From NCBI GenBank assembly GCA_031396695.1, contig JANNLG010000091.1:3632-67631 (forward strand): a stretch of DNA of 64,000 nt, given 5' to 3'. This document shows, in pieces, positions 5,089 through 32,500 of the stretch. How positions within the stretch are numbered: position 1 is the first letter of the stretch; each line of letters starts with the position of its first letter. Source of the stretch: Deltaproteobacteria bacterium. GTDB taxonomy: Bacteria > Myxococcota_A > UBA9160 > SZUA-336. The position numbers and the translations under genes are program-made. The notes under the pieces are model-generated. The model saw only the letters and a program-made list of their open reading frames with translations, was not told the DNA's origin and did not search any database.

Positions 5089-5877
5089 TCACAACAGGCC
5101 GTGACCCTTGATCTCGAGCGCCTTCTGCAGGAAGTCGAGCTCCGCCTCTCGGTAAGGAAGCGGCGCCGTGGCCTGGAGCAGCCGATCGCGCTCGAGCTCC
5201 TCGACGACCTTCGCGTCGCGCGGAAACGCGCTGCCGTAGCGGTTCATGTGGAACAGGTCGCCGAACGGACGGCGCGGCCGCTGCCCGCCCGCGCGCGGAT
5301 CCTCGAGCGGGTAGCCGACCGTCTGCAGCAGCAGCACGCGGCAGGTCTCGGGCATGCCGAGCGAGGCGCGGATCTTGTCGCCGTTCGGTGTACCCAGGCA
5401 ACAGGTGCCGAGCCCCTGCTCGTACGCCATCAGCGTGGCCTGCGCGATGCCCTGGCCGCAGTCGACCTCCGTGAGGCCGGGCTCCTTCAGCTTGTCGCGC
5501 AAGCTCGCGAACACGGGGATGAGCTGGGTCTCGAGCGCCTGCTCCTTGCCCGCGCCGAAGCCGAGCGCGCCGGCCTTGAGCAGCTCGCGCAAGCGGTTCG
5601 CCTGGTCGTCGATCGCGTCGGTGTCCAGGTACCAGACGATCACGACCGGCGCGCGCCGGATCTGGAAGCCCGCGATCGGAGCGACGATCGCGTCGACCAC
5701 GTCCTTCGGCGCGGTGTCGCGAAACACGACCACCGCGCGCAGCGCGCTCACGTTGCCCCAGTGCGAGGCGAGCCGCGCCGCTTCGAGCATGCGCTGGATC
5801 TTCTCCGGCTCGACCGGCTGATACGGCCGCATGAAACGGATCGAGCGCCGATTGCCGATGACCTCGCGAAGCTCCAT
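5089..5877 (-). CDS. Nitroreductase-family protein (paralog of 18543..19325)
   Basis: 262 aa. N-terminal NRRSIRFM motif typical of FMN nitroreductases. Shares a roughly 60-aa C-terminal extension (GGQRPRxPF...RDAKVV.ELE...APLP) with the second copy. Confidence 0.85.
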   Translation of the reverse strand: MELREVIGNRRSIRFMRPYQPVEPEKIQRMLEAARLASHWGNVSALRAVVVFRDTAPKDVVDAIVAPIAGFQIRRAPVVIVWYLDTDAIDDQANRLRELLKAGALGFGAGKEQALETQLIPVFASLRDKLKEPGLTEVDCGQGIAQATLMAYEQGLGTCCLGTPNGDKIRASLGMPETCRVLLLQTVGYPLEDPRAGGQRPRRPFGDLFHMNRYGSAFPRDAKVVEELERDRLLQATAPLPYREAELDFLQKALEIKGHGLL

Positions 5878-7177: not shown

Positions 7178-7193
7178 TATGACCGGCGTCATA
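7178..7193. promoter_or_regulatory. Perfect palindrome TATGAC-CGGC-GTCATA, candidate Crp/Fnr-family operator (copy 1 of 5)
   Basis: Read directly. Centre is 66.5 bp upstream of the ACAD ATG (7119). A TACGTT (TAnnnT) hexamer lies 21 nt downstream of the site on the minus strand, the geometry of a class II (-41.5) activator site. The site overlaps the stop codon of the Crp/Fnr gene. Confidence 0.7.
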
Positions 7194-7878
7194 TGGACCG
7201 CGAATCGCTCGCGGACTCTCCGTTCGCGACCTGCTCGAGCGCTACGCGATCGAGCAGGCGGATCCAGCCCACTCCGCCCTCGATCCAGCCCGCGCGCTCG
7301 AAGCCGCGCAGCACGCGGATGGCCGTCTCGACGGTCGTGCCGGCCGCTTCACCCAGGATCCGGCGCTTCGTCACGAGCCGCTGTCCCTCCGGTGCTTCGA
7401 GCAGCACTCGCGCCATGCGCGCGGTGACGGTGTCACTCGCGAACGAGCACAGCCGGTCGTGCGCATGCTGCAGACGCTCCGCCACGATCGAGAGCAGACC
7501 TCGGGCGATGCCGGGATCCTCCGCCAGGAACGTCTGCACCACGCGACGCGGTACCCGCCACGCCTCGCCCGGCACGACGCCCTGCGCGGACTCCGCGTGA
7601 CTCGCCCCGGACGTCAGCGCCGCGAGTCCGAACAAGTCACCGATCTGGAGGCGCTCGAGCTCGATCGCCCGTCCCGAAGCGTGGCTCTTCAGCGTGCGCA
7701 GCTCGCCGTTGCCGACGGCGAACATGTACTCCGCCGCCGCCGATTCGAAGTACAGGTACTCGCCCTCGCGGAACGGAATCGAGCGCACGTGAGGTCTGAG
7801 ACGGGGCATCCGCGCCGGTCCGAGCAGCCGGAACAGCGCGGTTTCCTCGAGCGGTCGCGGCTTCGCAGGGGCCTGCAT
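7189..7878 (-). CDS. Crp/Fnr-family transcriptional regulator (no FNR-type Cys cluster)
   Basis: 229 aa. Has a cNMP-binding-like beta-roll plus a C-terminal HTH (GTTVETAIRVLRGFERAGWI) resembling the FNR recognition helix TVETISR. Contains only one Cys. Confidence 0.9.
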   Translation of the reverse strand: MQAPAKPRPLEETALFRLLGPARMPRLRPHVRSIPFREGEYLYFESAAAEYMFAVGNGELRTLKSHASGRAIELERLQIGDLFGLAALTSGASHAESAQGVVPGEAWRVPRRVVQTFLAEDPGIARGLLSIVAERLQHAHDRLCSFASDTVTARMARVLLEAPEGQRLVTKRRILGEAAGTTVETAIRVLRGFERAGWIEGGVGWIRLLDRVALEQVANGESASDSRSI

Positions 7879-7948: not shown

Positions 7949-7964
7949 TATGACCTTCGTCATA
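7949..7964. promoter_or_regulatory. Perfect palindrome TATGAC-CTTC-GTCATA (copy 2 of 5)
   Basis: Lies in the divergent gap between the Crp/Fnr gene (ATG 7878) and the hemerythrin-like gene (ATG 8010). Suggests autoregulation. Confidence 0.7.
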
Positions 7965-8009
7965 GACGCTCCGCCCGCTGATTTTGCATGTTCGGTGCCG
8001 GAGGTAGCG

Positions 8010-8420
8010 ATGTCAGCGCACGCGACGTCGAATCCCATGATCCGCTGGTGGCAGGAGCACAGTGAGCTCGACGGCCTGGTCGAGGTCGTGGTCGAGGCGC
8101 TCGGCGGGGGCGCGATCGACTCCGCGGGCGAGTCGCTCGAGGATCTCGCAAGAGCGCTAGAGGCGCACTTCGAGCTCGAGGAGACAGCCTACTTCCCGCT
8201 GGTCGAGCGCCTCTCGCCCGACCAGCGCGCAGCGGTCGATGCGGCGCGGGTCGGTCACAGAAACATCCGCGAGCGACTCGAGGCTCTACTCACGCTCGTC
8301 GCGACCGGAGACTTGCGCGCCGCACGGGCGGCGTTCGACGTCCTGCTCGAGCGCTTCCGCACCCACGAAGCCGAAGAGGGCAAGTTGATCGCGCGGCTCG
8401 AGGCACTCGCCACCAGCTAG
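8010..8420 (+). CDS. Hemerythrin-like (HHE cation-binding) domain protein
   Basis: 136 aa from the internal ATG at 8010 (GGAGG at 8000-8004). Repeated H/E metal-ligand spacing (EHSELD, HFELEE, GHRNIRE, THEAEE) in a four-helix pattern. Confidence 0.7.
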   Translation: MSAHATSNPMIRWWQEHSELDGLVEVVVEALGGGAIDSAGESLEDLARALEAHFELEETAYFPLVERLSPDQRAAVDAARVGHRNIRERLEALLTLVATGDLRAARAAFDVLLERFRTHEAEEGKLIARLEALATS

Positions 8421-9754
8421 GGCGCGGGTCGGACGAAGTTGTTCATCCAATAGATGAACAGGCCCGTCAGCGCGACGTAGAGCCAGATGGGATAGCTGAT
8501 CCGCACGAGCCGCCGGTGCTCGGCGAAGCGCTCGCCAAGCGCGAGCTGCAACGTGCGCGCGACCAGCGGCACGACGGCGACGGCGAGCACGGTGTGAGTG
8601 GTCAGCACGGCGAGGAAGAAGGTTCGCAGCCAGTCGTCACCCGGAAAGCGGCGATGCCCGGCGAGACCGGTCTGCAGCACGTACAGCACCACGAAGAGCG
8701 CTCCGAGCGACACCGCCGAGAGCATCAGGCGTCGGTGCACCTCGCGCTGGCCGCGCCGGATCGCCACCAGCGCGGCAATCAAGAGCGCCGTGATCGCCGC
8801 GTTCAGCGCGCCGTTCAGGTGCGGCAGTAGCTCGCGTGGGCTCATCTCGACTCCTCGGGCTCCGAGCTCTAGGAGCATCGCGCCAAACAGACTCGAGAGG
8901 TAGAGCAGTGAGACGACGAACACGCGCCGATCGCCTGCGGCGCTGCGAGTGCGCACGGCCGCTGCGATCGAGCCCACGAACGCGATTCCGCCCGCGAGGG
9001 CGATGCTCGCGTAGCCGGCGCCGAGTACGCCGCCGGCGACCGGAAGCAGAGTCACGGGAATCAGCGCCAGCGCGAAGGCGAGCATGAAGCGACGAGTGAC
9101 TTGATCTCCGGCCACGGAGGGAAGCATGCGGAACGACGCCGCCTCGTACTCCTCGCGCCGGTACAGCGCGATCGCGAACACGTGCGGCGGTTGCCAGACC
9201 AGCACGATCGCGGCGAGCGCGATCCCCCACGGGCTGACGCGGCCGTCGACGGCGGCATCGGCGATCAACGGTGCAGTGCAGCCGGCGAACGCGCCCACCA
9301 GCGTGTTCCAGGCGCTGCGCGGCTTCAGCCAGATCGTGTAGACGAGCAGATAGTGCGCGAGCGTCGCCGCGCCGATCGCCGCGGGCAGCCAGCCACCGAC
9401 GGCGAAGAGCGCCAGCAGTCCGGCGACCGACGTCGCCATCCCGAAGGCCAGCGCGCGTCGAACCGGCAGCCGGCCGCTCGGCAGCGGGCGTGCGCGCGTT
9501 CGCTCCATGCGGGCGTCCGCGTCGCGCTCCCAGCACGCGTTGAGCGCGCTCGATCCCGCGCCGACGAGCGCGACTCCGAGCAGCGCGCCGAGCACCGTCG
9601 TCAGGTCGGGAAGTGCCGGCTGACCGAGCACGAACGCCGGCAGTGCGGTCAGCAGCACGCCGAGCAGCACGCCCGGACGCGTCAGGTCGAGATAGTCGCG
9701 CGCGCCCGATGTGCGCGGTGCGAGAGTCGCGACCTGCTGAGCGCTCGACGTCAT
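8417..9754 (-). CDS. ctaB: Protoheme IX farnesyltransferase (heme O synthase) fused to a DUF420 (CtaM-like) membrane domain
   Basis: 445 aa. The N-terminal ~290 aa is a UbiA-type prenyltransferase with CtaB/CyoE-like loops (NACWERDADARMERTRARPLP). The C-terminal ~150 aa (LPHLNGALNA...HRRLM...THTVLA...HRRLVRISYPIWLYVALTG) matches the DUF420 pattern. Confidence 0.85.
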   Translation of the reverse strand: MTSSAQQVATLAPRTSGARDYLDLTRPGVLLGVLLTALPAFVLGQPALPDLTTVLGALLGVALVGAGSSALNACWERDADARMERTRARPLPSGRLPVRRALAFGMATSVAGLLALFAVGGWLPAAIGAATLAHYLLVYTIWLKPRSAWNTLVGAFAGCTAPLIADAAVDGRVSPWGIALAAIVLVWQPPHVFAIALYRREEYEAASFRMLPSVAGDQVTRRFMLAFALALIPVTLLPVAGGVLGAGYASIALAGGIAFVGSIAAAVRTRSAAGDRRVFVVSLLYLSSLFGAMLLELGARGVEMSPRELLPHLNGALNAAITALLIAALVAIRRGQREVHRRLMLSAVSLGALFVVLYVLQTGLAGHRRFPGDDWLRTFFLAVLTTHTVLAVAVVPLVARTLQLALGERFAEHRRLVRISYPIWLYVALTGLFIYWMNNFVRPAP

Positions 9755-9764
9755 CCGGTCTCTC

Positions 9765-11852
9765 CTAGTGCAGGGTGAAGCCCGACGCGCGGTCGAACGC
9801 GATCACCCGCCGGGCTCGCTCGTCGAACGCGATGGACTGCTCGCTCGTGTGGGCCCACTCGTCGTCGTGGGTATCACCGATCTCCACGCGCACGAGGTGC
9901 TCTCCCGCAGGGACCGAGAGCGGCGCGACGGCGACGCTGGCGCCGTCGTTCCAGATGCCCTCGGGCGCGAAGCTCTCGTCGACCACTCGCGCACCGTCCA
10001 CGCTGACGCGCAGGCGAACCGGGGCGCGGCCCCGCTCGCACACCTCCGCCTGTCGCATGTGTCTGGGCAGACGTTCGAGCTCTTCCTCGCTGCGCGTGCG
10101 ACACACGTCGCTCTGTCGACCGGGGTGCTTGAACGTGACCACGAGCTCGGCGCCCGGCGCAGCAGGCGCGGTATAGCCCCAATCGCTGACAACGCCGATG
10201 ATCGCGCTGACGAGCAGCGCCAGAGCGACGGACCCCACGCCCGCCAGCGCGCGCGGTGGCTCCACAGTGGCTGGCCGTGGACGGTCTGCGAGCATTCGCG
10301 CGGCCGCGCGCACAAGCTCGGACTTGCGGGTCCGGTCGAGCCAGACGACCTCGATCCGCTCACGCACCTCGTGCTGCACACGCAGCGCCGGCCCACGCGT
10401 CCCGTCGAGCCGCTGGCCGAGAAACTCGGGCCCCTCGCGAAAGTGACACGATCCGGGCGGGCAGCTCACGATCAGCACCTGCTTCGCGCCGCGCCGCAGC
10501 GCCCGCTCGATCGACATCGCGTGGACCCAGCCCGCACACGGACCCGCCTGAACCCGCCAGCCGGGCAGCTCCGCACACAGCCCCGTCTTCGGGTCGATCT
10601 CGAGCGCACCTCCCGCCGACTGCGCGCAGACGAACGCGACGCCTGGCTGCTCGCCGTCCTGTCGTGCATGCTCGAGCCACGACGCGACGCGCTTGCGCTG
10701 TTCCAGCAGCGGGAACGCGGGCAGATCCGTGCCGATCGAATTGCACGAAGCCACGCAGATCCCGCACGCGACGCACTTCGCCGGGTCGACACGCGCCTCG
10801 AGCGCGTAGCTCTCGCGGCGGACCGGCTCCTCGCGTGTGACCATCGAGATCGCCTCGTACGGGCAGTCCTGGTAGCACTGCTCGCAAGCGTTGCAGCGCG
10901 CGGGGTCGACGGCCGCGCTCCGCGGCGCGCGCTTGCGCAGCGACCACGGCACCGCGCCGACCAGAGCGCCGCCGACGAGACACACGGTCCAGACCGCTCC
11001 GCCCGACAGCCGCTGGCCGAGCGCGAGCGGAAACAGGTACCACCAATCCATGCTGAACGACTCCGCGCGCGCGGTCATCTGCGCGCGCTCGGCGCTCGCG
11101 GCGGGATACGCGACCGAGAGCAGCGCGAGCGATCCCAGCACCCAGATCGTCATCGGAGCGCGCGTCAGGAAGCGCGCCCGCGCCGTGCGAGTCAGGTGCA
11201 GCCAGAGCAAGAACGCGAGCGCGAGAGGAACGAGCATGTGGAAGAAGAACACCACGAAGAACAACAGCGAGTTGATGCCCTCGTCGAACAGGAACGAGCG
11301 GCCCATCGGATCCGCGAAGATCGGCAGCGCGTCGAGCGCCTTCGCCGTCTCGATCGCCACGTATTTCCCGCGCACGTCCCAGACCAGCCAGTAACCGGTC
11401 CAGCCGAGCAGCCAGAGCACGCCAAGCGACAGCACGCCGGTCACCCACGCGACCCAGCGCGCGCCGCTGAAGCGTCTCTCGAAGAACAGCCGCAGCGCGT
11501 GCACCAGTCCGAAGAAGATGCACGCGTCGGAGCTGTAGCGGTGCAGCGAGCGCAAGAATCCCGCGCTCCACGGAGCGCTCGACATCGCGGCGACCGAGTC
11601 GTAGGCGAGGTACACGCTCGGGCGGTACCAGAACAGAAGCAGCACGCCCGTGACCGTGGCGACGAAGAGAGCGGTCAGCGCGACCGCCCCGGTCTGCAAG
11701 AACGGATTCAGCGCGTCGGGAAGCGCGCGCCCGAGCACGCGATCGAAGCCGAGGAACGAACGCTCGAGCAGACGCAGCGCGGCCTCCCCGCGGACCGATG
11801 CCTCGCCACCGTGCGCGGCCTCACCGGCCAGCCCGGCGCCTTCAGCCGCCAT
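9765..11852 (-). CDS. Fusion protein: di-heme cytochrome b (bc1/b6 N-terminal type) + 2x[4Fe-4S] ferredoxin + MvhD/FlpD-like domain + TM + C-terminal beta-rich domain
   Basis: 695 aa. Two His pairs on predicted helices (SLHRYSSDACIFFGLVHALR and FFFHMLVPLALAFLLWLHL). CNACEQCYQDCP and CVACGICVASCN cluster motifs. MvhD-like VAFVCAQS...GPCAGWV...VLIVSCPPGSCHFREG. Confidence 0.8.
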   Translation of the reverse strand: MAAEGAGLAGEAAHGGEASVRGEAALRLLERSFLGFDRVLGRALPDALNPFLQTGAVALTALFVATVTGVLLLFWYRPSVYLAYDSVAAMSSAPWSAGFLRSLHRYSSDACIFFGLVHALRLFFERRFSGARWVAWVTGVLSLGVLWLLGWTGYWLVWDVRGKYVAIETAKALDALPIFADPMGRSFLFDEGINSLLFFVVFFFHMLVPLALAFLLWLHLTRTARARFLTRAPMTIWVLGSLALLSVAYPAASAERAQMTARAESFSMDWWYLFPLALGQRLSGGAVWTVCLVGGALVGAVPWSLRKRAPRSAAVDPARCNACEQCYQDCPYEAISMVTREEPVRRESYALEARVDPAKCVACGICVASCNSIGTDLPAFPLLEQRKRVASWLEHARQDGEQPGVAFVCAQSAGGALEIDPKTGLCAELPGWRVQAGPCAGWVHAMSIERALRRGAKQVLIVSCPPGSCHFREGPEFLGQRLDGTRGPALRVQHEVRERIEVVWLDRTRKSELVRAAARMLADRPRPATVEPPRALAGVGSVALALLVSAIIGVVSDWGYTAPAAPGAELVVTFKHPGRQSDVCRTRSEEELERLPRHMRQAEVCERGRAPVRLRVSVDGARVVDESFAPEGIWNDGASVAVAPLSVPAGEHLVRVEIGDTHDDEWAHTSEQSIAFDERARRVIAFDRASGFTLH

Positions 11853-12777
11853 CGGGCTTCTCCCGCAGGAGAAGCTCCAGCGCCGAGCTCAGCCAGCGCT
11901 GCTGCCGCTCACCCAGCGTGAGTCGATAGGCGATGCGCCCGTCCCGGTCGACGAGGAGAAAGAGATTCGCGTGATCGATCACGCCGGTCTCGGGATCGCG
12001 GGTGCGCGCGATGCCCATGTCGTCGAGCACGCGCTCGACCTCGGTCGGCTCGCCGGTGACGAGCGCATAGAGCGGCGCCTCGATCTGGTGACTGCGCGCG
12101 AGCGCCGCGAGCACGTCTGGCGTGTCGTGCGCCGGATCCATGCTGACGGCGATCACGCGCAGATCGCCGCGCAGCTCCGCGGGCACCGCCGCGATCGCCG
12201 CCTTGGTCTGACCGAAAATCAGCGGACAGCTCAGCGGGCACGACGAGTACACGGCAGTCAGCAGCACGACCTTGCCCCGCAGTGCTTCGAGATCCAACGT
12301 GACTCCGTCCTGATTCACGAGCCGCAGAACGGGCGAGTGGAGCTGCGTGCGCAGCGCCTCGGCCGGGAACGTCAGCTGATCTCCCTCGGGCTCGCGACCG
12401 AGCGCCGTGAAGGAGATGGCGGCAATCGCGACGAAGAGAGCGCTCGATAGACATGGCCACACCCACGCGCGGCGTTGTGCCGCCAGCGCGCGCAACGGCT
12501 GCCACCAGAACAGCGCGATGACCGGAGCGATCACGGCCGGCGGTCCCATCATGGCCATCACGTAGCCCGGATTCAGACGGCCCGTCGCGGGGTCGTAGCC
12601 GAAGCACCAGATCCGGAACTCGTCCGCGAACCCGCCCATGCTCGTCTCACCTCCCGGGCTGAACAGCATCACGAGCAGCAGCAGCTCCCAGAACACGAGC
12701 ACGCCGAGCGCGAATGCGGGAAAGCCGCCGCCGTCGAAGAAGCGTTCGGCGTCCGCGCGGGCGTCGAGGGTGGTCAT
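11842..12777 (-). CDS. SCO1/SenC-family copper chaperone with extended N-terminal membrane region
   Basis: 311 aa from the ATG at 12777, which forms an ATGA overlap with the subunit I stop. Thioredoxin-fold CxxxC copper motif (SSCPLSCPLIF) and a downstream conserved His (D.AH.DTP-type region). The 669-aa ORF in the track is an artefactual N-terminal extension. Confidence 0.8.
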   Translation of the reverse strand: MTTLDARADAERFFDGGGFPAFALGVLVFWELLLLVMLFSPGGETSMGGFADEFRIWCFGYDPATGRLNPGYVMAMMGPPAVIAPVIALFWWQPLRALAAQRRAWVWPCLSSALFVAIAAISFTALGREPEGDQLTFPAEALRTQLHSPVLRLVNQDGVTLDLEALRGKVVLLTAVYSSCPLSCPLIFGQTKAAIAAVPAELRGDLRVIAVSMDPAHDTPDVLAALARSHQIEAPLYALVTGEPTEVERVLDDMGIARTRDPETGVIDHANLFLLVDRDGRIAYRLTLGERQQRWLSSALELLLREKPDGG

Positions 12778-14525
12778 CGCACGTGCCACACGTCTGCGAG
12801 CCATAGCCAGTTCGCGAAGTAGTAGACCGCGAACGAAAGCAGGAACACGAGCACCAGCACGAGCGTTCCCGGCGTGCGCTCGTCCTCGCCACCCGAACCC
12901 GGCGCCGGCTGGATCGCGGCGGCCGCGCGGCGATCGACGTGCCAGGCCGTCATCGGCTGGCCCGCGTTGGAGCGACCGAAGAACACGGCCGCGACCACCA
13001 GCGCGATGAACAGGAACAGCCCCAGGAAGGCGATCACCGACCCGACCCCGAGCAGCCCCAACATGACGTGCGCGCCGGAGTCGAAGCCCGCCGAGAACTG
13101 TGCGCCGCTGAACTCGACATCCCAGTGACGGCGCGGGACGCCGTAGGACCCGGCGAACGACATGCCGATCGCCATGGTCGTGATGCCGATGCCGAACAGG
13201 TACGGCTGGATCCTGCACCAGGTCCTCGCGTAGAACTCGCGCTGGAAGATCAGCGGGACGAGGTAGTAGGTCAGCGCCATGAACGCGAGCGTCGTGCCGC
13301 CGACTACGGTGACGTGGAAGTGACCCGGGATGCGCAGCGTGTTGTGCGCCATGATGTTGATCTGCTGCGTGCCGAGCACGACCCCGGTGATCCCGCCGCC
13401 GAAACCGAAGATCACGAGCGACAGGAAGAAGCCGGAGAATCCGGGATTCGACCACGGCGCGTTGGCGAGCCAGCCGAACAGCCCGCGCCCGAAGCCCTTC
13501 CCCCGCATCGCCACCTCGATCGACGCCGGCACCGTGAAGCCGTGGATCATCGATGCCAGGACGGCGAGATACATCGCGTAGGAGGTGTTCCAGATCTTCC
13601 ACGCCGCGCCGACGCCCGGATCGACCAGGATATGGTGCGCCGAGGCGAGGTTGATGAACAGGATGTAGAGCACGAAGGCGCCGCGGCAGACCGCCTGCGA
13701 GATCGGCTTCGCACCCACGGTCAATGCGCCGAGCAGGTACCAGACCGAGACCATCGCGCATACGTTCACCTGCTGAGACATGTGACCCAGTCCCCACCAG
13801 GTCACTCGATACCAACCGGGGTCGATCGCCGGCAGCACTCCGACCGACCACAGGAACGTCGGGATCATCACCACCGCGCCGTGCAAGAGCGTCACGACCG
13901 CGATGATCGCGGCCGCGGTGGCGCCGAACACGACCAGCGGCACGGAGCCCTCGTAGGTGTGGTCGCGCTTCGCGATGTAGAGCGTGCAGAAGAAGTTGAT
14001 CACGGCCACCAGCGCTCCGACCGCGAACAGGATGATGCCCAGGTAGAACAGCGGGTGCGCGACCAGCGGCGCGTACGACGTCATCAGCACGTCCGCCTTG
14101 CCGATCAGAATGGTGGCGTTGAACATGACCGCGCCGGCGAGCATCAGCGCGAATGCGATCCAGGCCAGCGCCACCGAATAGAGTCGGCTGTTGAGCAGGA
14201 CCGTCCCCGCGAAGTAGAGGATCGCGATCTCGAAGTTCAGGATCATCACGATCAGCATGTCGAGGCCGTGCAGCGTGAGAACGCGGTAGTACCAGTCCGC
14301 GGGAAGCAGATGCACCGCCGGCCAGCGCGTGAGACCGAGCAGGATGGCTCCCACGCCGCCGATCAGCAGGAACACGACGGCTGTGACCGCGTGCAGCTTC
14401 ATGAAGCGCTGCGCCGTGAGACAGACCGGCAGCCCGGTCGTGTCGCAGGCGCGGACCACTCCGGTCGGGTGATTTCCATGTGCCTCCGTCGGGATCGTGT
14501 CGCCGGGGATCGTCGTAGTCGTCAT
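12774..14525 (-). CDS. Heme-copper oxidase superfamily subunit I (B-family-like, canonical cross-link Tyr absent)
   Basis: 583 aa with about 12+ TM segments. Helix VI WWGLGHMSQQV (CuB His, but Gln at His+4). Helix VII SAHHILV (CuB HH). Helix X PGHFHVTVVGGT (heme ligands). Helix II LTLHGLDM. Confidence 0.85.
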   Translation of the reverse strand: MTTTTIPGDTIPTEAHGNHPTGVVRACDTTGLPVCLTAQRFMKLHAVTAVVFLLIGGVGAILLGLTRWPAVHLLPADWYYRVLTLHGLDMLIVMILNFEIAILYFAGTVLLNSRLYSVALAWIAFALMLAGAVMFNATILIGKADVLMTSYAPLVAHPLFYLGIILFAVGALVAVINFFCTLYIAKRDHTYEGSVPLVVFGATAAAIIAVVTLLHGAVVMIPTFLWSVGVLPAIDPGWYRVTWWGLGHMSQQVNVCAMVSVWYLLGALTVGAKPISQAVCRGAFVLYILFINLASAHHILVDPGVGAAWKIWNTSYAMYLAVLASMIHGFTVPASIEVAMRGKGFGRGLFGWLANAPWSNPGFSGFFLSLVIFGFGGGITGVVLGTQQINIMAHNTLRIPGHFHVTVVGGTTLAFMALTYYLVPLIFQREFYARTWCRIQPYLFGIGITTMAIGMSFAGSYGVPRRHWDVEFSGAQFSAGFDSGAHVMLGLLGVGSVIAFLGLFLFIALVVAAVFFGRSNAGQPMTAWHVDRRAAAAIQPAPGSGGEDERTPGTLVLVLVFLLSFAVYYFANWLWLADVWHVR

Positions 14526-14529
14526 CGCG

Positions 14530-15057
14530 CTACTCCTCGACCAGGATGCGTCCGGCCATCAGGTGGTGGCCGATGCCGCAGAACTCGTTGCAGATGATCG
14601 TGAACTCACCCGAGCTCGTCGGAGTCAGGGTGAGCACGTGGTCGTAGCCCGGCAGGATCTGGAAGTTCATGTTCAATGGCTGCAGCGAGAAGCCGTGCTG
14701 CAGGTCGATCGACGAGATGTGTACGCGGTAGGTCTGATCCTTCTTGAGCTTCAGGACCGGAAACCACGACCACATCTGCGCCTGCAGATAGGCGTCTCCT
14801 CCGGGCGCGGGCTGCACGATCGGGATGCCGTTCAGCTCCCCGACTTGGTTCGTGGACACGAAGCGCGCCACGCGCTGGGCGAACTCCGCGGGCGTGACCC
14901 GGTACGCCTCGCCGGTGCTGTTCTGCTTGCCGTAGAAGTGCCAGTACGGCATTGCGACGAACATCACGAGGCACCAGCTCATCGCGAGGCCGACCCAGAG
15001 TCTCTCCGCTCCGTGCGGCGCCTTGAACCAGCCCGCCGGCGGTGGATGAATGCTCAT
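14530..15057 (-). CDS. Heme-copper oxidase subunit II with complete CuA site (single TM, ba3-like size)
   Basis: 175 aa with one N-terminal TM and a cupredoxin domain. CuA ligand pattern: H in DLQHGFSL, and CNEFCGIGHHLM (C-x-E-x-C-G-x2-H-x2-M). Confidence 0.85.
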   Translation of the reverse strand: MSIHPPPAGWFKAPHGAERLWVGLAMSWCLVMFVAMPYWHFYGKQNSTGEAYRVTPAEFAQRVARFVSTNQVGELNGIPIVQPAPGGDAYLQAQMWSWFPVLKLKKDQTYRVHISSIDLQHGFSLQPLNMNFQILPGYDHVLTLTPTSSGEFTIICNEFCGIGHHLMAGRILVEE

Positions 15058-15072
15058 GCGATCACTCCTTGT

Positions 15073-15228
15073 TCACGGCAACGTCGCGGGCGCCAGGTAG
15101 TACAGCTCGACCCATGCCCAAAGCGTGTACGAGACGATCGGGATCAACACCCCGAGCGCGAGCAGCAGCCACGGATTGTCCATGAGTCTCTGCAGCGGGT
15201 GGACGTAGCCCGAGTCACTTCGCGCCAT
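15073..15228 (-). CDS. Small single-TM membrane protein (oxidase accessory subunit candidate)
   Basis: 51 aa from the ATG at 15228 with a GAGGAGG RBS. One hydrophobic helix (PWLLLALGVLIPIVSYTLWAWV). Position is analogous to the small subunits of ba3/cbb3 oxidases. Confidence 0.5.
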   Translation of the reverse strand: MARSDSGYVHPLQRLMDNPWLLLALGVLIPIVSYTLWAWVELYYLAPATLP

Positions 15229-16666
15229 AGTCGAACCTCCTCGACCCGGCCAGCGCACCCGCCGCCGGAGTGACCGATTCGCGACTCAGCCAGGCGGACC
15301 CGACGACCGCGATGAACAAGATGCCTCCGGCGATCGAGGCGAAGCCGCCTAGCCCCATCAGGCCCAGACCCAACGTCTCGGCGACACCGCGAGCCGCCTG
15401 CTCCGCGCCGTAGATCTTGCGCCCCATGCCGTGCGCGCCCGCGAGCGCGAAGCCGGCCGCCAGCACCAGCATCCCGGCGCCATACACCGCGGGCTGCCAG
15501 ACGACCGCGCGGCGCATTCCACTGCTCGAGATCCCGAGACCGAACGACGGCAGCAGCAGGTAGCTCGCCGCCATGAATGCGAGCGTGATCGCCCCGACCG
15601 ACGCGTGATAGTGCGCGGGGACCATCGTGCTCTGGCCGCGAATCGCCGCGCCGAGCCCGAAGCCCACCGCGGTCAGGACTGCACTCACGAGAAACGCGGA
15701 GATGCGCGGGTCCGCGAGCGACGCGGCGGAGATCGCGCCCGCACGCCATGCACGCACGACGGCCGTCGTGCACAAGATCAGGAAGATCGTGACGACCGGG
15801 AAGATGCACCAGCGCATCAGCTCGGTGTATCCGACCTGGTAGCCCGCCGTGTGGGTGCCCGCGAGCGCGAACACAGGCGCGAACAGCCACGGCAGAAGAA
15901 GCGCGACGAATAGCCAGCGCGCCGCGAGCGCGCTCACCGGGGCCGCGCCGAGCGCGGACTCGAGCAGCCACAGCCAAAGCGAGAGCATGGCGAGCGTGCA
16001 CACGAGCTGCAGCACGTGCCCGATTCCCCAGACCAGCAGGTCGGCGTACACGTCGGGTTGGAGACCGCCTGGCGCGCGCAGCCAGGTGAATGCGAGCGTG
16101 AGCGCGGCGAGCAGCAGCGCCGCGCGCGCCGTGCGCAGGCCGCTGACCACGCCCGCCGGCATGTCGATGGCGACCAGGCGCGCCGCGCCCGCGCGCCGAT
16201 CGGGCAGAAAGCGGGAATCGACGAAGCTGGCGAGTACGCCGAATCCGAACACCAGCTGACCCGCCTGGAAGATCCAGTGATCCACTGTCGGGATGTAGTT
16301 CGAGAGCAACGGAGGCGCGCCGGGAATCCCGGCTCCGACGAGCTGCAGCGCGATCCCCGCACCCGCGACGTGAACCGAGTGCCGCGCGAGCCACCCGGCG
16401 CGTCCGCGCGCCGGCAGCAGGAAGAAGAGCGAAGCCAGGATCGAGTAGAACCAGGCGACCAACGCCAGGTTGACGTGCGCGACCAGACAGCGCTTGAAGA
16501 AGACCGGGTCGGTCACGAAGCGATCGAAGGGAGGCATGCGTCCCAGAACCACGGCAAGCGCGAACAATCCGGCGAGCACGAGCACGATCAGCGACATTCC
16601 CAGCCAGCGCCGAGAAGCGAGTCGAAGTTCCGAGGTGTCGCTGCTCGTGCTAGCCGTTGAGGACAT
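15215..16666 (-). CDS. Divergent heme-copper-oxidase subunit I-like membrane protein lacking the helix VII His-His pair
   Basis: 483 aa, polytopic. Clear local similarity to the neighbouring subunit I (LVWGIGHVLQLV vs WWGLGHMSQQV; VPAHYHASVGAITLAFMAASYLLLP vs IPGHFHVTVVGGTTLAFMALTYYLVP). No HH motif, only GTHTAG. Confidence 0.7.
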   Translation of the reverse strand: MSSTASTSSDTSELRLASRRWLGMSLIVLVLAGLFALAVVLGRMPPFDRFVTDPVFFKRCLVAHVNLALVAWFYSILASLFFLLPARGRAGWLARHSVHVAGAGIALQLVGAGIPGAPPLLSNYIPTVDHWIFQAGQLVFGFGVLASFVDSRFLPDRRAGAARLVAIDMPAGVVSGLRTARAALLLAALTLAFTWLRAPGGLQPDVYADLLVWGIGHVLQLVCTLAMLSLWLWLLESALGAAPVSALAARWLFVALLLPWLFAPVFALAGTHTAGYQVGYTELMRWCIFPVVTIFLILCTTAVVRAWRAGAISAASLADPRISAFLVSAVLTAVGFGLGAAIRGQSTMVPAHYHASVGAITLAFMAASYLLLPSFGLGISSSGMRRAVVWQPAVYGAGMLVLAAGFALAGAHGMGRKIYGAEQAARGVAETLGLGLMGLGGFASIAGGILFIAVVGSAWLSRESVTPAAGALAGSRRFDYGAK

Positions 16667-16853
16667 GCTGCCGCACGGAAGTGCAATCGACGGGCCAGCG
16701 GTGCGACGCGGAATCGCAGAACGACGTGCTCGATCCGCGAAGGCGTGAGTCGATCAGTCTCATGGGAGTCCCCTCGCCGTAGCGTCAGGCCTCAGCAGGT
16801 CGCGTGGAGTGAGTCGCGCGACCCCGAATGGCGACGAGCTGTTCCGCGATCGA

Positions 16854-17084
16854 TCAGTCGATCTGCGGCATCTTCGCGCGCGACAGTCCGAGCAGCGCGC
16901 GGACCAGGAAGCCGAGCATTCGCGGCCGCAGCGTCATGCGCAGCAGCTGCAGAAACTCGCCGAGCGTCATGTGGGTGCGCGCGTCCCACACGCCCATCTT
17001 CCCGCTGATCACGATCTCGCCCTGGCCCGGCTCCATCCTGTCGAACGACAGGATGAAGCGCCCCGCTTGCGACTCGACCGTCAT
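16854..17084 (-). CDS. Hypothetical small protein (76 aa)
   Basis: High GC3 coding pattern. The ATG is 1 nt after the stop of the upstream 450-aa gene. No recognisable motif. Confidence 0.5.
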   Translation of the reverse strand: MTVESQAGRFILSFDRMEPGQGEIVISGKMGVWDARTHMTLGEFLQLLRMTLRPRMLGFLVRALLGLSRAKMPQID

Positions 17085-17085
17085 C

Positions 17086-18438
17086 TCAGGCCGCCCGCAG
17101 CGCCCGCGCGCGCCGCGCGTGCCACTTCTCCAGGTGGCGTCGGTGCCGTTCGGTGTAGGCCCCGTCCTGGTAGTGCGTGTCGTAGAAGTCGCAATCGATG
17201 TGCTGCGCCTGCACCATCACCGTCAGCAGGCAGGGATCGACGAGCGCCGGCAAGCGTCCCCACTTGCGCCAGACCGCGCGCAAGACGTCCTTCGTGCACT
17301 GCACGATCACCGGGTCCGTGCGCGGGATGGCGACCTCCATCTGGCCCGGACGCTTGTACGGAGCGTTCTCCGCGTTCGCGGGATGGAAGATCCCCGTCGG
17401 ACCCCACTTGCGCTCGATCAGATCGTCGACCGCGTCGTCGATCGAGCCGCCGTAGTAGTACGGGTGGTGCGTCTCGAAGACACCGTCTTTCCCGATCGGG
17501 TACGGGAAGCCCGCGAGCGGACCGTGATCCGCGGTCTCGAAGCGGAAGCCGAGGCCTCGACACAGAGGTGTGCCGCCGAGCGCCATCATCGCGTTGAAGC
17601 CGCCAAACGGCCAGCCTCCGAGTCCGAGCGCCGATTCCACCAGCAGCAGGTTCTGCGCCATGAAGCCGACCTCGACGTTGCACGCGCCGAAGGCGACCAG
17701 CGGCTCGAGACTCTGGTACGGCACCGGAATCGTCGCCAGCCCCTGCTTCACCCACTTCTCGCAGCCGAGCGGCGTCATGCCGTCATCGGCGTCCACCGGA
17801 TAGTTGCCCTGCTCGATGAACAGCATCAGCCCGTTGATCAGCTCCGCGGTCACGTCGCAGACCGGCATGAAGAGCGTCGTGCCGGGCTGGTTCGCGTTCC
17901 AGGTGTTGAACGACATGAACGCGGGCGAAGAGTGCGGCAGGTCGATGCGCTCGCTCGAGATCTGCACGCGCCGGTCCGCGAACACGGAGACTAGCTGATC
18001 GAGATCGTCCATGCGCGCGATCTCCTGCATGCGCTCGGGGTGCGTGCCGCGGATCTTCACGACGTAAGTGCCCTCGTCGTTCGTGTAGAACAGCTCCGTG
18101 CCGTGCGAGCCACAGGGACTCGGAAAGGTGCGGCCCGAGTACTCGAGCATGGTGTTGCAGTTGCCGTCCCAGGCCTCACCGGGCGCGAGCTCCTCCTTCC
18201 GCGTGTGCGGCATGTCCGCGAGGTTCGTGCCGGACATGCCCGTCGCGGCCATGCACAAGAGCGCCTCCTCCTCGAAGGAGAGCGGCAGCGGCTGCGCCTG
18301 CGACTTGAATGCGTTGGGTCCGTGACGGATCTCCATGCCCAGTCCGAAGCGGCGTGAGCGCCGTGTGAAGATCGACTCGAAGAGTGGCGTCGACCAAGCC
18401 TCTTCGAGCAGCTTGCGGGTCTCGGGATCCATCGCCAT
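17086..18438 (-). CDS. Large nitroreductase-superfamily-like protein (450 aa, function unknown)
   Basis: Start at the ATG at 18438 (MAMDPE...), with GAGGAGGAA 6 nt upstream. N-terminal TRRSRRFGLG and mid-protein GFMAQNLLLVESALGLGGWPFGG resemble nitroreductase FMN-fold motifs. The domain assignment is tentative. Confidence 0.7.
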   Translation of the reverse strand: MAMDPETRKLLEEAWSTPLFESIFTRRSRRFGLGMEIRHGPNAFKSQAQPLPLSFEEEALLCMAATGMSGTNLADMPHTRKEELAPGEAWDGNCNTMLEYSGRTFPSPCGSHGTELFYTNDEGTYVVKIRGTHPERMQEIARMDDLDQLVSVFADRRVQISSERIDLPHSSPAFMSFNTWNANQPGTTLFMPVCDVTAELINGLMLFIEQGNYPVDADDGMTPLGCEKWVKQGLATIPVPYQSLEPLVAFGACNVEVGFMAQNLLLVESALGLGGWPFGGFNAMMALGGTPLCRGLGFRFETADHGPLAGFPYPIGKDGVFETHHPYYYGGSIDDAVDDLIERKWGPTGIFHPANAENAPYKRPGQMEVAIPRTDPVIVQCTKDVLRAVWRKWGRLPALVDPCLLTVMVQAQHIDCDFYDTHYQDGAYTERHRRHLEKWHARRARALRAA

Positions 18439-18492
18439 GGCAGGTTCCTCCTCGCGCTGGCTGCAAAGAGAACAGGCGCGCCGAGCGGCAGC

Positions 18493-18508
18493 TATGACGG
18501 CGGTCATA
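18493..18508. promoter_or_regulatory. Perfect palindrome TATGAC-GGCG-GTCATA (copy 3 of 5)
   Basis: Lies in the divergent gap. Centre is 62.5 bp from the 450-aa gene ATG (18438) and 42.5 bp from the nitroreductase ATG (18543). Confidence 0.7.
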
Positions 18509-18542
18509 AGCCGGGGGATTGCGCCCGGCTAGTGTCGTGTTG

Positions 18543-19325
18543 ATGGAACTACGCGGTGTACTCGGTGGGCGGCGTTCGATCCGCTTCTTCGACCCGGATC
18601 GACCGGTCGAGCGTGCGAAGATCCAGAGGATGCTCGAGGCGATGCGAATCGCTTCGTGCGCGGTGAACGCGCACTGGCTGCGCGCGGTGGTGGTGAATCG
18701 CGCCGACATCCCGGCCGCGACGCTGGAGGCTCTGAAGACGCCCGTCGCCGGGCTCGTCCAAGAGCTCGCTCCGGTCCACATCTACTGCTACCTCGACGCG
18801 GGCGTGGTCACGCGCGTGAAGGGTGCGCGCCTGAAGCAGCTCGTGGACGTCGGCGCGCTGAACCCGACGCACGGTTGGAGTCACCGCTTCGTCGACGAGT
18901 TCGTCTATCCCCAGATCCTCGAGCCGATGACGAAGGGGCCAGGCTATCTCGTCTCGGCCGCCTTCGACTGCGGCGGCGCCGGTACGCAGGGTCTGCTGGT
19001 CGCCGTCGACGAGGGACTCGGCGTCTGCTGGACGGCGTTCAACCCGGCGCCCGCAAAGCAGCTGCTCGGCGTGCCCGACGACTGGGTGCCTCTCTACTGT
19101 CTGAACGTCGGCTACGCACTCGAGTCACGCGATGCCGGTGGCCAGCGACCACGCCCGCCGTTCGAAGAGCTGTACTTCGAGGGTCGCTTCGGCCGGCCCT
19201 TCGCGCGCGACGCGAAGGTGGTCGGCGAGCTCGAGCAGACCGGCATGATCCAGCCGCCCGCGCCGCTGCCGGGCCGCCGCGAGGAAATTCGCGGGCTCGC
19301 GCACCGGCTCGGGCTGCCGGAGTAA
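18543..19325 (+). CDS. Nitroreductase-family protein (paralog of 5089..5877)
   Basis: 260 aa from the ATG at 18543 (MELRGVLGGRRSIRFF...). Alignable end to end with the 262-aa copy, including the C-terminal extension. Confidence 0.85.
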   Translation: MELRGVLGGRRSIRFFDPDRPVERAKIQRMLEAMRIASCAVNAHWLRAVVVNRADIPAATLEALKTPVAGLVQELAPVHIYCYLDAGVVTRVKGARLKQLVDVGALNPTHGWSHRFVDEFVYPQILEPMTKGPGYLVSAAFDCGGAGTQGLLVAVDEGLGVCWTAFNPAPAKQLLGVPDDWVPLYCLNVGYALESRDAGGQRPRPPFEELYFEGRFGRPFARDAKVVGELEQTGMIQPPAPLPGRREEIRGLAHRLGLPE

Positions 19326-20854: not shown

Positions 20855-22015
20855 ATGACTTCGAGACACTCTCGCTGCGCGTTCATGGCCGTGCTCGCCG
20901 CTTCGCTCTGGGGGAACGGCTGCAATTCCCCGGTGGCTCCCTCACTAGAAGACGAGCGCGCAGCGAAAGCTTCGGCCGCGTCCGCGGCGGCGCCCTCCGT
21001 CGAAGGCGTCTACACCGCGCTGGTTCACCGTGGCCAGATCGCGAGCACGATCACGACCTCGGGTTCGATCGCCGCGCGCCGCTCGACCACGCTCGGTCCG
21101 TCTGTGCCCGGACGCATCATCCACATCTTCGTGCAGGTCGGTGACGAGGTTCCGTTCGGCGCGCCGATCTTCCAGATCGACCCAGGGCCCTACGCGAGCA
21201 TCCAGGCCGAGGCGGATGCCGGTCTCGCGGTCGCGCGCGCCGACCTCGAGGACGCGCGCGAGAACGAAGCACGCATTGCCATGCTGGCCGCCAAGGAGAT
21301 GATCTCGAGCGAGGATCACCGCCGCGCGCGCACGGCGGTCAAGCTCGCGATGTCGCGGCTCGAGGCAGCCGAGGCGCGGGCATCGCGCGCGCGCGACGAC
21401 TTGAACCGCACGCTCGTGCTCGCGCCCTACGCGGGAAGCATCATCGAGCGCAGCACCCACGAGGGCACCATGGCGACGGTCACGCCGAACACCGCCGTCG
21501 TCGTGCTGCAGGAGAGCGGTGAGCTCGAGGCGATCGTCGACGTGCCCGAGGCATCGCGTATCGCCGTGCGGCCGGGTGACCGCGTGCGCATCTGGACCGA
21601 GGAGCTGCCCGCGCCGCTCGAGTCGGAGGTGCGCGCAGTGAGCCGCGCGATCGACCCGCGCACGCGTACCTACCGCGTGCGCGCGAGCGTTCGCGATCCG
21701 AGCAGCACGCTCAAGTCGGGCGCGTTCGTGCGCGCCGAGATCAGTCCCGGTCCGCGTCCGGAAGCGCTGCTCGTGGAGCGTTCCGCAGTCGTGCAGCGCG
21801 ACGGCAGCTCGTACGTCTTCCGCGTCGCCGACGGCCGCGCCGAACGCATCAGCGTGCGCCTCGGCGTGCTTGGCCTGCAGGACGCGGAAGTGCTCGATGG
21901 ACTCGCAGACGGCGACCGCGTCGTGCTCGGCGATGTGGTCGGGAGGCTCGATGACGGCGCGCGCGTGCGCCCGATCGAGGTCGCGGCGGGCCCTGCGCCG
22001 AAGGCGCGGCCGTGA
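20855..22015 (+). CDS. RND efflux periplasmic adaptor (membrane fusion protein), probable lipoprotein
   Basis: 386 aa. N-terminal hydrophobic segment ending in Cys (AASLWGNGC). Coiled-coil hairpin, lipoyl and beta-barrel pattern of the HlyD/AcrA family. GTGA overlap with the pump gene. Confidence 0.85.
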   Translation: MTSRHSRCAFMAVLAASLWGNGCNSPVAPSLEDERAAKASAASAAAPSVEGVYTALVHRGQIASTITTSGSIAARRSTTLGPSVPGRIIHIFVQVGDEVPFGAPIFQIDPGPYASIQAEADAGLAVARADLEDARENEARIAMLAAKEMISSEDHRRARTAVKLAMSRLEAAEARASRARDDLNRTLVLAPYAGSIIERSTHEGTMATVTPNTAVVVLQESGELEAIVDVPEASRIAVRPGDRVRIWTEELPAPLESEVRAVSRAIDPRTRTYRVRASVRDPSSTLKSGAFVRAEISPGPRPEALLVERSAVVQRDGSSYVFRVADGRAERISVRLGVLGLQDAEVLDGLADGDRVVLGDVVGRLDDGARVRPIEVAAGPAPKARP

Positions 22016-25000: not shown

Positions 25001-25146
25001 CCTTGGTCGTGGTTCCGGTCGTCTATTGCCTGCTCGATTCGCTGCGCATCGGCGCCGCATTGCGCCTCGGCACCGCTCTGCGCGAGCGGCTTCGCGGATG
25101 GTCAGGGCTCGTCGAAGAACGAATCGATCTCGGGCGGCGCCCGTAG
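22012..25146 (+). CDS. RND efflux transporter permease (AcrB/HAE family)
   Basis: 1044 aa. Internally duplicated 12-TM architecture with two large periplasmic loops. Typical N-terminus SIRRPVFALMLSL. Confidence 0.95.
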   Translation: MKLASLSIRRPVFALMLSLGLVVLGLVSLSRLEIALDPDVEFPFIAVTTVLRGASPETVESEITDVLEEEINTTEGIRSLRSVSAESLSQVFVEFEIGEDVDVKAQQIRDKVALARPRLPLDAEDSVVAQLDPDAAPILSILLAGPYAIRELSELAENEVADRIERLPGVGSVSVVGSRRREIRIWLDPLRLSGYGLSIEEIADVLRRENAELAGGRIENAEQEWAVTTANKVGRIDDFGSLIVAERGGSLVHLLDVATIEDGLQEERSIARLNGERGVSLEVRRRSGANTVAVARAVRATVEELRATLPAGLSMSLARDNATFIEDSIGSIFEDMVLGAILTVAVVLLFLRNLRSTLIAALAIPASVIASFTFFLMAGFTLNMMSLMALSLSIGLVIDDAIVVLEAIYRRLESGESRREAADRGTEQVGLAVVSTTLAVCAVFVPIAFMSGMVGQWFYEFGLVVAIAVGVSTLVALTLTPMLASKLLRLERAPGRTVRTLERGQTALEHGYRRLLAGALRRKGLTVGAALVAIVLGLGVAALLPFDFYQQGDQGEFAVDAKLPIGTPLGVTDRVSRRIEEIVSAQPHVLDVFATVGPGLQREANRTHIVVKLVPKQERSATQLDVMDALRETLHDAVPEAEEISVGELSWIQFSGGRSATLVYTLRGPDLERLAGHAAALVARMKSDPVFVDVASSHETGRPEIRLTLARDVAADLSVPGVAVGRTIRALLAGEKVGTFEQSGERYDVRVQVLPEYRDDPGELDLIRVRSMRGDLVPLTNVARVRIGEGPVEIHREDRSRQITLYANLAHGAPLGVGSQKLEAWGRELAIVSPDELAAAGRARAMMETGTAIRFAFFLALAAIYMILASLFNSLVHPFTIMVSAPLAFIGGFLALWFAGMSLDLMSGIGLLVLLGLVMKNGILLVDCANQLREDGRSAQNAMLEAGPVRLRPVLMTTGALIFGLLPVAFSASSGSEFRAPMAMITVGGLLTSTLLTLVVVPVVYCLLDSLRIGAALRLGTALRERLRGWSGLVEERIDLGRRP

Positions 25147-26401: not shown

Positions 26402-26404
26402 GCG

Positions 26405-31670: not shown

Positions 31671-31728
31671 GGCTGTCCTCCTCACAGCTGAGTTTCGGCA
31701 TGATACGGTCGCGAGAGATGGGGTTTCA

Positions 31729-32493: not shown

Positions 32494-32500
32494 GCGCGCG

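Follow-up and report, generated by a model that had tools for sequence, protein, structure and literature searches.

Gene content and conservation of the locus

The DNA analysed here is a stretch of 64,000 nucleotides (nt) from a bacterium of the SZUA-336 lineage (assembly GCA_031396695.1, contig JANNLG010000091.1, positions 3,632–67,631 of the forward strand; hereafter, the window), with a G+C content of about 70%. It contains a block of nine minus-strand open reading frames (ORFs) at 8417–18438. Seven of these, at 8417–16666, very probably form an operon for a nitric oxide (NO) reductase of the eNOR family, a heme-copper oxidoreductase (HCO) whose sequence points to derivation from the ba3-type oxidases of the B family. 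The third-position G+C of all nine ORFs is high, as in real genes. Start codons were chosen by ribosome-binding sites and by the gene calls in a close relative (L084), and the following features were assigned (lengths in amino acids, aa):

17086..18438, minus strand: g1, distant nitroreductase-superfamily protein of 450 aa, placed by its family profile; outside the conserved operon
16854..17084, minus strand: g2, ORF of 76 aa with no family match; outside the conserved operon
16682..16697, minus strand: sigma-54-type -24/-12 motif TGGCCCGTCGATTGCA, a strict motif match with presumed promoter function
15215..16666, minus strand: g3, HCO subunit I paralog of 483 aa, placed by hhalign and by the fold match of its AlphaFold (AF2) model
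15073..15228, minus strand: g4, protein of 51 aa, predicted to span the membrane once and encoded where ba3 has subunit IIa
14530..15057, minus strand: g5, probable eNOR subunit II of 175 aa (PF00116 COX2, CuA motif)
12774..14525, minus strand: g6, probable eNOR subunit I of 583 aa, the predicted catalytic subunit with the heme/non-heme-metal site (PF00115, E 1e-62)
11842..12777, minus strand: g7, Sco1/SenC copper chaperone of 311 aa (PF02630, E 4e-18)
9765..11852, minus strand: g8, cytochrome b/Fe-S/MvhD-FlpD/beta-sandwich fusion of 695 aa (domain matches, AF2 model)
8417..9754, minus strand: g9, fusion of heme O synthase (CtaB/CyoE) and a CtaM-type DUF420 domain (TIGR01473, 247 bits; PF01040; PF04238)

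A first-pass annotation of this DNA had described nine co-directional genes spaced by 15 nt or less save for one spacer of 187 base pairs (bp), and the ORF and junction check bears this out. Read from g1 to g9, the junctions are a 1-nt gap, the 187-nt gap (16667–16853), a 14-nt overlap, a 15-nt gap and a 4-nt gap, followed by overlaps of 4 nt (g6/g7) and 11 nt (g7/g8) and a 10-nt gap (g8/g9). Searches against Pfam and NCBIfam also returned the families that had been named for the last five genes, namely COX2 for g5, COX1 for g6, SCO1/SenC for g7, Cytochrome_B with two Fer4 domains and FlpD for g8, and heme O synthase (UbiA) with DUF420 for g9. The same direct searches with g1–g4 gave no family match, and profiles and models were needed to place g1 and g3. 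The annotation had further remarked on the absence of cytochrome c, Rieske protein, subunit III and heme A synthase. In agreement with this, no CxxCH or Rieske motif occurs in any protein of the block, and neither subunit III nor the heme A synthase CtaA has a Pfam or NCBIfam match within it.

Relatives of subunit I are widespread; in public data, they make up over 120 protein clusters at an identity of 75% or higher. Among species-representative genomes, scanning returned 441 stretches encoding such a relative, and the best 80 (L001–L080), each with up to 10 kb of flank, were searched with the nine window proteins by tblastn (E <= 1e-5). These 80 loci are mostly from Myxococcota or 'Deltaproteobacteria', with others from Planctomycetota, Leptospiraceae, Acidobacteria, Calditrichota, Rhodothermales and Opitutales. 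The order g3-g4-g5-g6-g7-g8 on one strand is kept in essentially every locus with enough flank. CtaB lies within the flanks in 42 of the 80, mostly directly downstream of the fusion gene g8; its fusion to DUF420 is restricted to the closest relatives, and some other loci have a separate DUF420 gene nearby. No match to g1 or g2 was obtained at this threshold in any of the 80 loci. Since g3–g8 are kept, CtaB is present in about half of the loci and g1 and g2 are unmatched, the conserved unit comprises the seven genes at 8417–16666 rather than all nine. The nine-gene block is thus upheld in part: the neighbourhood of the seven genes is strongly conserved across several phyla, and g1 and g2 are, as judged by these searches, lineage-specific neighbours. 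The full nine-gene order, with g1 and g2 included, recurs in the close relative L084, whose subunit I is 82% identical.

The upstream boundary suggested by this comparison coincides with a promoter-like element. The motif TGGCCCGTCGATTGCA lies within the 187-bp spacer on the minus strand (16697–16682), has the exact -24/-12 spacing of sigma-54 promoters and sits upstream of the g3 ATG at a distance of 16 nt. Both strands of the whole window hold only one other strict sigma-54 match, and the motif is kept in the two closest relatives, L084 and L001. A gene for an Rrf2-family regulator adjoins the cluster in 39 of the 80 loci, most often divergent and directly upstream of g3. The position of the sigma-54 motif, taken with that of the Rrf2 genes in relatives, suggests a promoter directly upstream of g3; transcription of the operon probably begins there, from a sigma-54-type promoter of its own within the spacer. 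Scanning of 16500–18700 for sigma-70 promoters and intrinsic terminators found none. A search for the FNR/DNR box TTGAT-N4-ATCAA with up to two mismatches gave 8 matches against 4 expected, none of them at a promoter position, and this candidate was rejected.

The Rrf2 genes of L001–L080 are located about 2.5–2.9 kb upstream of the subunit I start or 4.7–6 kb downstream of it. Those beside the cluster score only as members of the Rrf2 superfamily at large and do not reach the NsrR cut-off. The window has no Rrf2 gene beside the operon; a Crp/Fnr-type gene (7189–7878) and the sigma-54-type motif are found instead.

The first-pass annotation had placed the promoter of all nine genes at a palindrome upstream of g1. 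The palindrome itself is present (TATGAC-N4-GTCATA, 18493–18508); a conserved nine-gene unit driven from it is not supported, given the unmatched g1 and g2, the sigma-54 motif in the spacer and the divergent regulators upstream of g3. A further inverted repeat (AGCCGGG-N8-CCCGGCT, 18509–18530) lies between the divergent g1 and a canonical nitroreductase gene (18519–19325). Both symmetric elements at 18493–18530 may be operator sites for the g1/nitroreductase pair rather than for the eNOR operon.

Catalytic subunits and accessory proteins

The closest solved structure for g6 is the ba3 oxidase of Thermus thermophilus (1EHK, 3S8F), a member of the B family (E 5e-45). In the alignment, H248 of g6 corresponds to H233 of ba3, H297/H298 to H282/H283 and H402/H404 to H384/H386, and all six metal-ligand histidines are present (two for the low-spin heme, one for the high-spin heme and three for CuB/FeB). 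Where ba3 carries the cross-linked tyrosine Y237, a residue needed for the reduction of O2, g6 has Q252, so that the helix-6 motif GHPxVY of the B-family His-Tyr cofactor is replaced by GHMSQQ. The K-channel residues S309, T315 and Y248 of ba3 are matched by S325, T331 and Y263, and the T312 position is occupied by His. Among 26 family members, H86, H248, Q251, Q252, H297, H298, H402, H404, S325, T331 and Y263 are invariant, with Q252 found in all 26. A tyrosine of g6, Y287, precedes H297 by 10 residues as counted in the sequence; the corresponding tyrosine-His spacing in cbb3 oxidases is about 6. In C-family oxidases, the cross-linking tyrosine resides on a different helix.

The subunit II protein g5 retains a complete CuA motif (DLQHGF ... 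CNEFCGIGHHLM, i.e. H...CxExCx3Hx2M). It consists of one hydrophobic N-terminal segment, by eye a transmembrane helix, and a cupredoxin domain, and is 61–82% identical across loci.

Homologs of g6 encoded on three plasmids of cultured bacteria (Defluviimonas sp., Thermomicrobium roseum and T. thermophilus NAR1) are 46–52% identical to it and share the motif GHxxQQ(V/I)N, whereas the B-family oxidases aligned with them, from Natrinema and Deinococcus, show GHxxVY and only 30–32% identity. A glutamine at the position of the active-site tyrosine is diagnostic of eNOR (PMC8756737, Table A4). The purified eNOR of Rhodothermus marinus reduces NO and not O2, and the family is related to the B family, with CuA in subunit II and the S309 equivalent in a K-channel-like path (PMC11214002). 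The window proteins resemble the R. marinus type in the following respects: a B-family-related subunit I with Tyr replaced by Gln and three CuB/FeB histidines kept, K-channel-like residues including the counterpart of ba3 S309, a CuA subunit II, and genes for heme O synthase and Sco in the operon. They differ in that eNOR operons often carry CtaA, which the window block lacks. References for the eNOR family of heme-copper NO reductases are Hemp & Gennis 2008 and Murali et al. 2024.

The NAR1 homolog has HFK in place of HFH in helix 10, matching the His/Lys ligation of the low-spin heme reported for some eNORs (Murali et al. 2024, PMC11214002). Its gene adjoins genes for nitrite reductase, an Rrf2 regulator and a DUF542 protein. 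On this plasmid (plasmid 4, L083), the eNOR-type pair occupies 8307–11388, has the motif GHGAQQ and carries the annotation 'cbb3-type cytochrome c oxidase subunit I'; nitrite reductase and multicopper oxidase genes lie within about 5 kb, and the Rrf2 and DUF542 genes follow directly.

The first gene of the operon, g3, had been described as a degenerate second subunit I, and the evidence supports a true paralog. Many of its homologs carry a precomputed PF00115 match, and profile-profile comparison with the subunit I family by hhalign gives a probability of 99.7% (E 1e-25, 406 columns). A direct sequence search of the PDB with g3 gave nothing useful; its AF2 model has a predicted local distance difference test (pLDDT) score of 86, and the best fold match is ba3 subunit I, with a template modelling (TM) score of 0.77. 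Invariant in the family are H64 (low-spin heme), H352/H354 (both hemes), H217 (one CuB/FeB ligand) and R416/K417, the last two at the heme-propionate position. The helix-7 HH pair, which provides two CuB/FeB ligands, and the K-channel residues are absent from the family. With the heme ligands kept and the HH pair and channel residues gone, g3 probably binds two hemes and has neither a binuclear site nor a proton path. In nearly every locus whose flank is long enough, its gene is found upstream of those for the small protein and subunit II. The small protein g4 is 45–81% identical among loci and is encoded directly upstream of subunit II in most of them, and a small ORF occupies this position also in Defluviimonas, T. 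roseum, T. thermophilus and Natrinema. From the ba3 order IIa-II-I, we infer that g4 is the counterpart of ba3 subunit IIa by position.

The presence of a di-heme cytochrome b fused to Fe-S domains, as annotated earlier for g8, is confirmed. Over its whole length of about 700 residues, this architecture is conserved; it carries the NCBI name 'hydrogenase iron-sulfur subunit' and follows Sco in all of the 80 loci with enough flank. In the AF2 model (pLDDT 83), six transmembrane helices (A–F) are folded like cytochrome b6 and the cytochrome b of bc1 (TM 0.66–0.70). Four heme-ligand histidines (H104, H118, H205 and H219) are invariant and would bind two hemes b, and the ef-loop has a conserved DWWY at the position of the bc1 PEWY. 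Two ferredoxin motifs of four cysteines each ([4Fe-4S] sites, 8 Cys) and an MvhD/FlpD-like domain with 5 invariant Cys are also found. The C-terminal part comprises an extra transmembrane helix and then a beta-sandwich with invariant H576, H598, M599 and H652, for which no significant Pfam or PDB sequence match was obtained. From the helix count in the model, the Fe-S domains would be cytoplasmic and the beta-sandwich periplasmic. As the beta-sandwich matches no family, a metal-binding or relay role can only be guessed from its conserved His/His/Met/His set. In Defluviimonas the beta-sandwich is a separate gene of 172 aa after the cytochrome b gene.

The fold and the four histidines of g8 are those of the Rieske/cytochrome b complexes; the cytochrome b of bc1 and b6f, however, is accompanied by a Rieske protein and cytochrome c1 or f, and the g8 block encodes neither. 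In the neighbourhoods inspected, no Rieske or c-type cytochrome gene recurs beside the cluster. A di-heme cytochrome b beside cytoplasmic Fe-S clusters, as in g8, follows the logic of the NarI/NarH, HdrE/HdrD and DsrM/DsrK membrane modules. Compared with these Nar, Hdr and Dsr modules and with bc1/b6f, g8 differs in the fusion of Fe-S and MvhD-like domains to the cytochrome b, in the extra helix and in the predicted periplasmic beta-sandwich.

The remaining genes of the operon encode assembly proteins. The Sco protein g7 has a CPLSC motif and a conserved hydrophobic N-terminal extension; it directly follows subunit I in the loci, with a query coverage of 0.9–1.0, and the L084 gene call is also 311 aa. 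The TIGR01473 score of g9 exceeds the cut-off, and CtaM, to which its second part corresponds in type, is a DUF420 protein (PMC9145763).

Upstream of the spacer, the g1 ATG at 18438 is preceded by GAGGAGG, and the L084 gene call likewise gives 450 aa. The g1 family has 1045 representatives of 50%-identity clusters. A direct PDB search with g1 gave two weak matches only, both of nitroreductase fold (E 0.7–0.95), whereas the family profile matches nitroreductase-fold chains at E 6e-4, and 6 of 40 members match PF00881. The earlier label 'nitroreductase-like' therefore holds in the sense of a distant superfamily member, and its inclusion in the module does not: with no match in the 80 loci, g1 is taken from these searches to be a lineage-specific neighbour. 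The gene following it after 1 nt, g2, has no detectable relatives outside the close lineage and follows g1 also in L084.

Function, alternative explanations and earlier descriptions

By analogy with the R. marinus enzyme, electrons would enter at CuA and pass over the low-spin heme to a site made up of the high-spin heme together with a non-heme metal, where two NO would be converted to N2O. Reduction of NO to N2O is the most likely function of the enzyme on this analogy. Protons would be delivered by a K-channel-like path, in which the counterparts of ba3 S309, T315 and Y248 are conserved. Sco would load CuA, and the CtaB-DUF420 protein would supply heme O and help late assembly. Less certainly, g8 would act as a dedicated membrane redox module linking the enzyme, in place of a cytochrome c route, with either the quinone pool or a cytoplasmic donor, and g3 would be no second catalytic site but a structural or electron-relay partner with two hemes and no CuB/FeB. 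An HCO-type NO reductase with a dedicated heme O supply had been offered as an alternative in the first-pass annotation, and it fits both the eNOR signature and the presence of CtaB in the operon.

Several points weigh against this assignment. The placement in eNOR draws on the signature residue, the identity levels and the literature, and not on a phylogeny with labelled references such as the eNORs of R. marinus and M. magnetotacticum; activity, heme type and active-site metal cannot be read from the sequence. The block has no heme A synthase, yet heme As occupies both heme sites of the R. marinus eNOR, the one enzyme for which this and NO reduction without O2 reduction are known. Both g3 and g8 are missing from the eNOR loci of T. 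thermophilus and T. roseum, so that neither is essential to every eNOR, and the roles proposed above for these two proteins are less certain, being hypothetical. The sigma-54-type motif is confined to the closest relatives and is not found in more distant loci. Finally, the larger window ORFs that were scanned, roughly 45 in number, include neither a nir nor a nos gene, and a respiratory role is consequently not separable from a detoxifying one.

The source databases call the homologs cytochrome c oxidase or cbb3-type oxidase subunit I, and an ordinary B-family ba3-type O2 reductase would be in keeping with the best structure and sequence matches, which are to the ba3 oxidase, and with the shared IIa-II-I order and the CuA subunit II with one transmembrane helix. 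We regard this as extremely improbable: the ba3 enzyme, which reduces O2, has the His-Tyr cross-link at Y237, for which the window family has an invariant Gln; true B-family oxidases show GHxxVY and just 30–32% identity; and the characterised member of the Gln type does not reduce O2 (PMC11214002). The ba3 system is also without the subunit I paralog and the cytochrome b/Fe-S partner, both of which are present in the window. A different proposal, made at the outset for this block, is that all nine genes form one undescribed respiratory or detoxification chain, expressed from the palindrome region, in which quinol would feed cytochrome b/Fe-S and then the HCO. The co-directional, tightly spaced genes, their identical order in L084 and the lack of a cytochrome c or Rieske protein in the block speak for such a chain, and in g8 the helices and ef-loop of the bc1/b6f Qo pocket are retained. 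The proposal is nevertheless very unlikely, as g1 and g2 are unmatched in 80 of 80 loci while g3–g8 are kept, a sigma-54-type motif lies inside the spacer, a divergent Rrf2 gene stands directly upstream of g3 in many relatives, and the core enzyme and the composition of the cassette have already been described.

For g3 and g8, two further possibilities concern the accessory proteins within an eNOR operon. They could be biogenesis factors that hold or modify heme O/A, or that supply or remove electrons during cofactor maturation at low O2. Both are encoded among the Sco, CtaB and DUF420/CtaM assembly genes; g3 keeps its heme ligands and the propionate R/K pair and has lost CuB/FeB histidines and the K-channel residues; and CtaA is missing from the block, yet the characterised eNOR carries heme As. 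A preprint on Ferrigenium straubiae moreover asks how heme A forms under anoxic conditions and names the paralog 'scaffold protein' (bioRxiv 10.64898/2026.01.22.701106). A biogenesis role is nonetheless rather unlikely, since the F. straubiae proteome contains both proteins in amounts not much lower than those of the catalytic subunits, and the domains of g8 resemble electron-transfer modules (NarI/NarH, HdrE/HdrD, the cytochrome b of Rieske/cytb complexes) and no known heme-modifying enzyme. It is unlikely that eNOR of this widespread clade works as a larger complex with the g8 fusion and the heme-only paralog. Such a complex might provide transmembrane electron input from a cytoplasmic donor to CuA independently of cytochrome c. 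Alternatively, it might split the electrons of quinol, one going to the very high-potential NO/N2O couple and the other by way of the two b hemes to a low-potential cytoplasmic Fe-S chain; if this were true, NO reduction would drive the formation of low-potential reductant. The paralog, with both heme sites and no CuB/FeB, could also have a function of its own.

The first-pass annotation had considered the architecture to be undescribed, which does not stand. The Tyr to Gln signature of eNOR is published, NO reduction by an enzyme of this type has been demonstrated (PMC11214002), and the parts of the cassette are listed for F. straubiae. The eNOR operon of that organism is reported to contain the genes for eNOR II and eNOR I along with heme o synthase, sco1 and what is termed an 'eNOR scaffold protein of unknown function', a set that is called 'a very common observation', together with two cytochrome b/Fe-S fusions called 'rather unusual' (bioRxiv 10.64898/2026.01.22.701106). 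The scaffold protein (gene 2878407321) is a hypothetical protein in IMG with the KEGG orthology (KO) assignment K02274, cytochrome c oxidase subunit I, and one of the fusions is annotated as ferredoxin/F420-reducing hydrogenase delta subunit, the kind to which g8 belongs (bioRxiv 10.64898/2026.01.22.701106). In view of its KO assignment, the scaffold protein is the same kind of protein as g3. Transcripts of eNOR I and II were the highest among three HCOs under autotrophic denitrifying conditions, and the proteome contained 6 of the 8 listed operon proteins, the scaffold protein and both fusions among them (bioRxiv 10.64898/2026.01.22.701106). The same components are thus already on record in another gene order, and the block belongs to an enzyme family that is known and was recently characterised, with an operon composition noted before. 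The Caldithrix genome paper was considered as a possible earlier account of the cassette and was set aside, as it describes an A-family cluster instead.

The two systems are not identical. In F. straubiae KS the paralog lies downstream and the gene order differs, whereas in the window the paralog is the first gene. Extra genes in F. straubiae KS encode a cytochrome b/Fe-S/FAD/NAD fusion and PerM; in the window, by comparison, the beta-sandwich is fused to the cytochrome b protein and DUF420 to CtaB. Cytochrome b fusions, 'rather unusual' in the preprint, are the rule in this clade by the 80 loci. Compared with the eNOR family as characterised from R. marinus, the window clade always has the upstream subunit I paralog and the downstream cytochrome b/Fe-S/FlpD fusion, and its subunit I is only 46–52% identical to the eNOR-type genes found in cultured bacteria.

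What the present comparison adds is the synteny of the paralog and the fusion with this eNOR clade wherever the 80 best loci had enough flank, and the finding that the losses of the paralog are exactly the two helix-7 CuB/FeB ligands and the proton-channel residues, its heme ligands being kept. The remaining interest lies in the two accessory proteins g3 and g8, as regards the electron route to eNOR and the making or insertion of the heme cofactor at low O2. Genes for eNOR are routinely annotated as cytochrome c oxidase, and through this misannotation organisms able to convert NO to N2O, in the present case probably a member of the Myxococcota, are missed in nitrogen-cycle surveys.

Other genes in the window

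Two genes lie immediately beyond the downstream end of the operon:

7950..8420, plus strand: hemerythrin HHE-domain gene, convergent with the operon end (PF01814)
7189..7878, minus strand: Crp/Fnr-family (FixK-like) regulator gene (PF00027, PF13545; weak FixK/Fnr NCBIfam matches)

A hemerythrin gene is found at the cluster end also in L084 and on the Defluviimonas plasmid, and an association of the window gene with the operon is possible. The hemerythrins of the window and of Defluviimonas have no tblastn match in the 80 loci, and the Crp/Fnr regulator gene is absent at the corresponding place in L084 and in the 80 loci. The hemerythrin, the Crp regulator and a HemN gene were left out of the module, as they are not kept beside the cluster in these loci. 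The HemN-type gene, of the radical S-adenosylmethionine family, lies downstream of the operon at 786–2186 (minus strand), as does a second canonical nitroreductase-family gene at 5089–5877 (minus strand).

On the plus strand, 25730–30273 holds three genes matching EB_dh (of the heme b gamma subunit type), Fer4_11 and Molybdopterin/Molydop_binding, which look like a complex of the type II dimethyl sulfoxide reductase family (the family of Nar, Ebd, Ser, Clr and Pcr). The ORF at 26839–30273 overlaps the Fer4_11 gene, so that the large subunit probably begins at a site further downstream. A cytochrome b561 gene (25102–25620, minus strand) stands beside these three genes. The genes at 30875–34941, which encode two PhyH-family dioxygenases, a TylF-type O-methyltransferase and a 2-oxoglutarate-Fe(II) oxygenase of the tailoring type, may form a cluster for small-molecule modification.

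Two MacB/FtsX-type permease genes followed by an HlyD-type adaptor gene, the second such adaptor in the window, are encoded at 42454–46106 (plus strand). The first belongs to an efflux pair of the resistance-nodulation-division (RND) type, an HlyD-type adaptor and an AcrB-type pump, at 20855–25146 (plus strand). A similar RND pair is found near the eNOR-type cluster on the Defluviimonas plasmid (L081, 341–4612).

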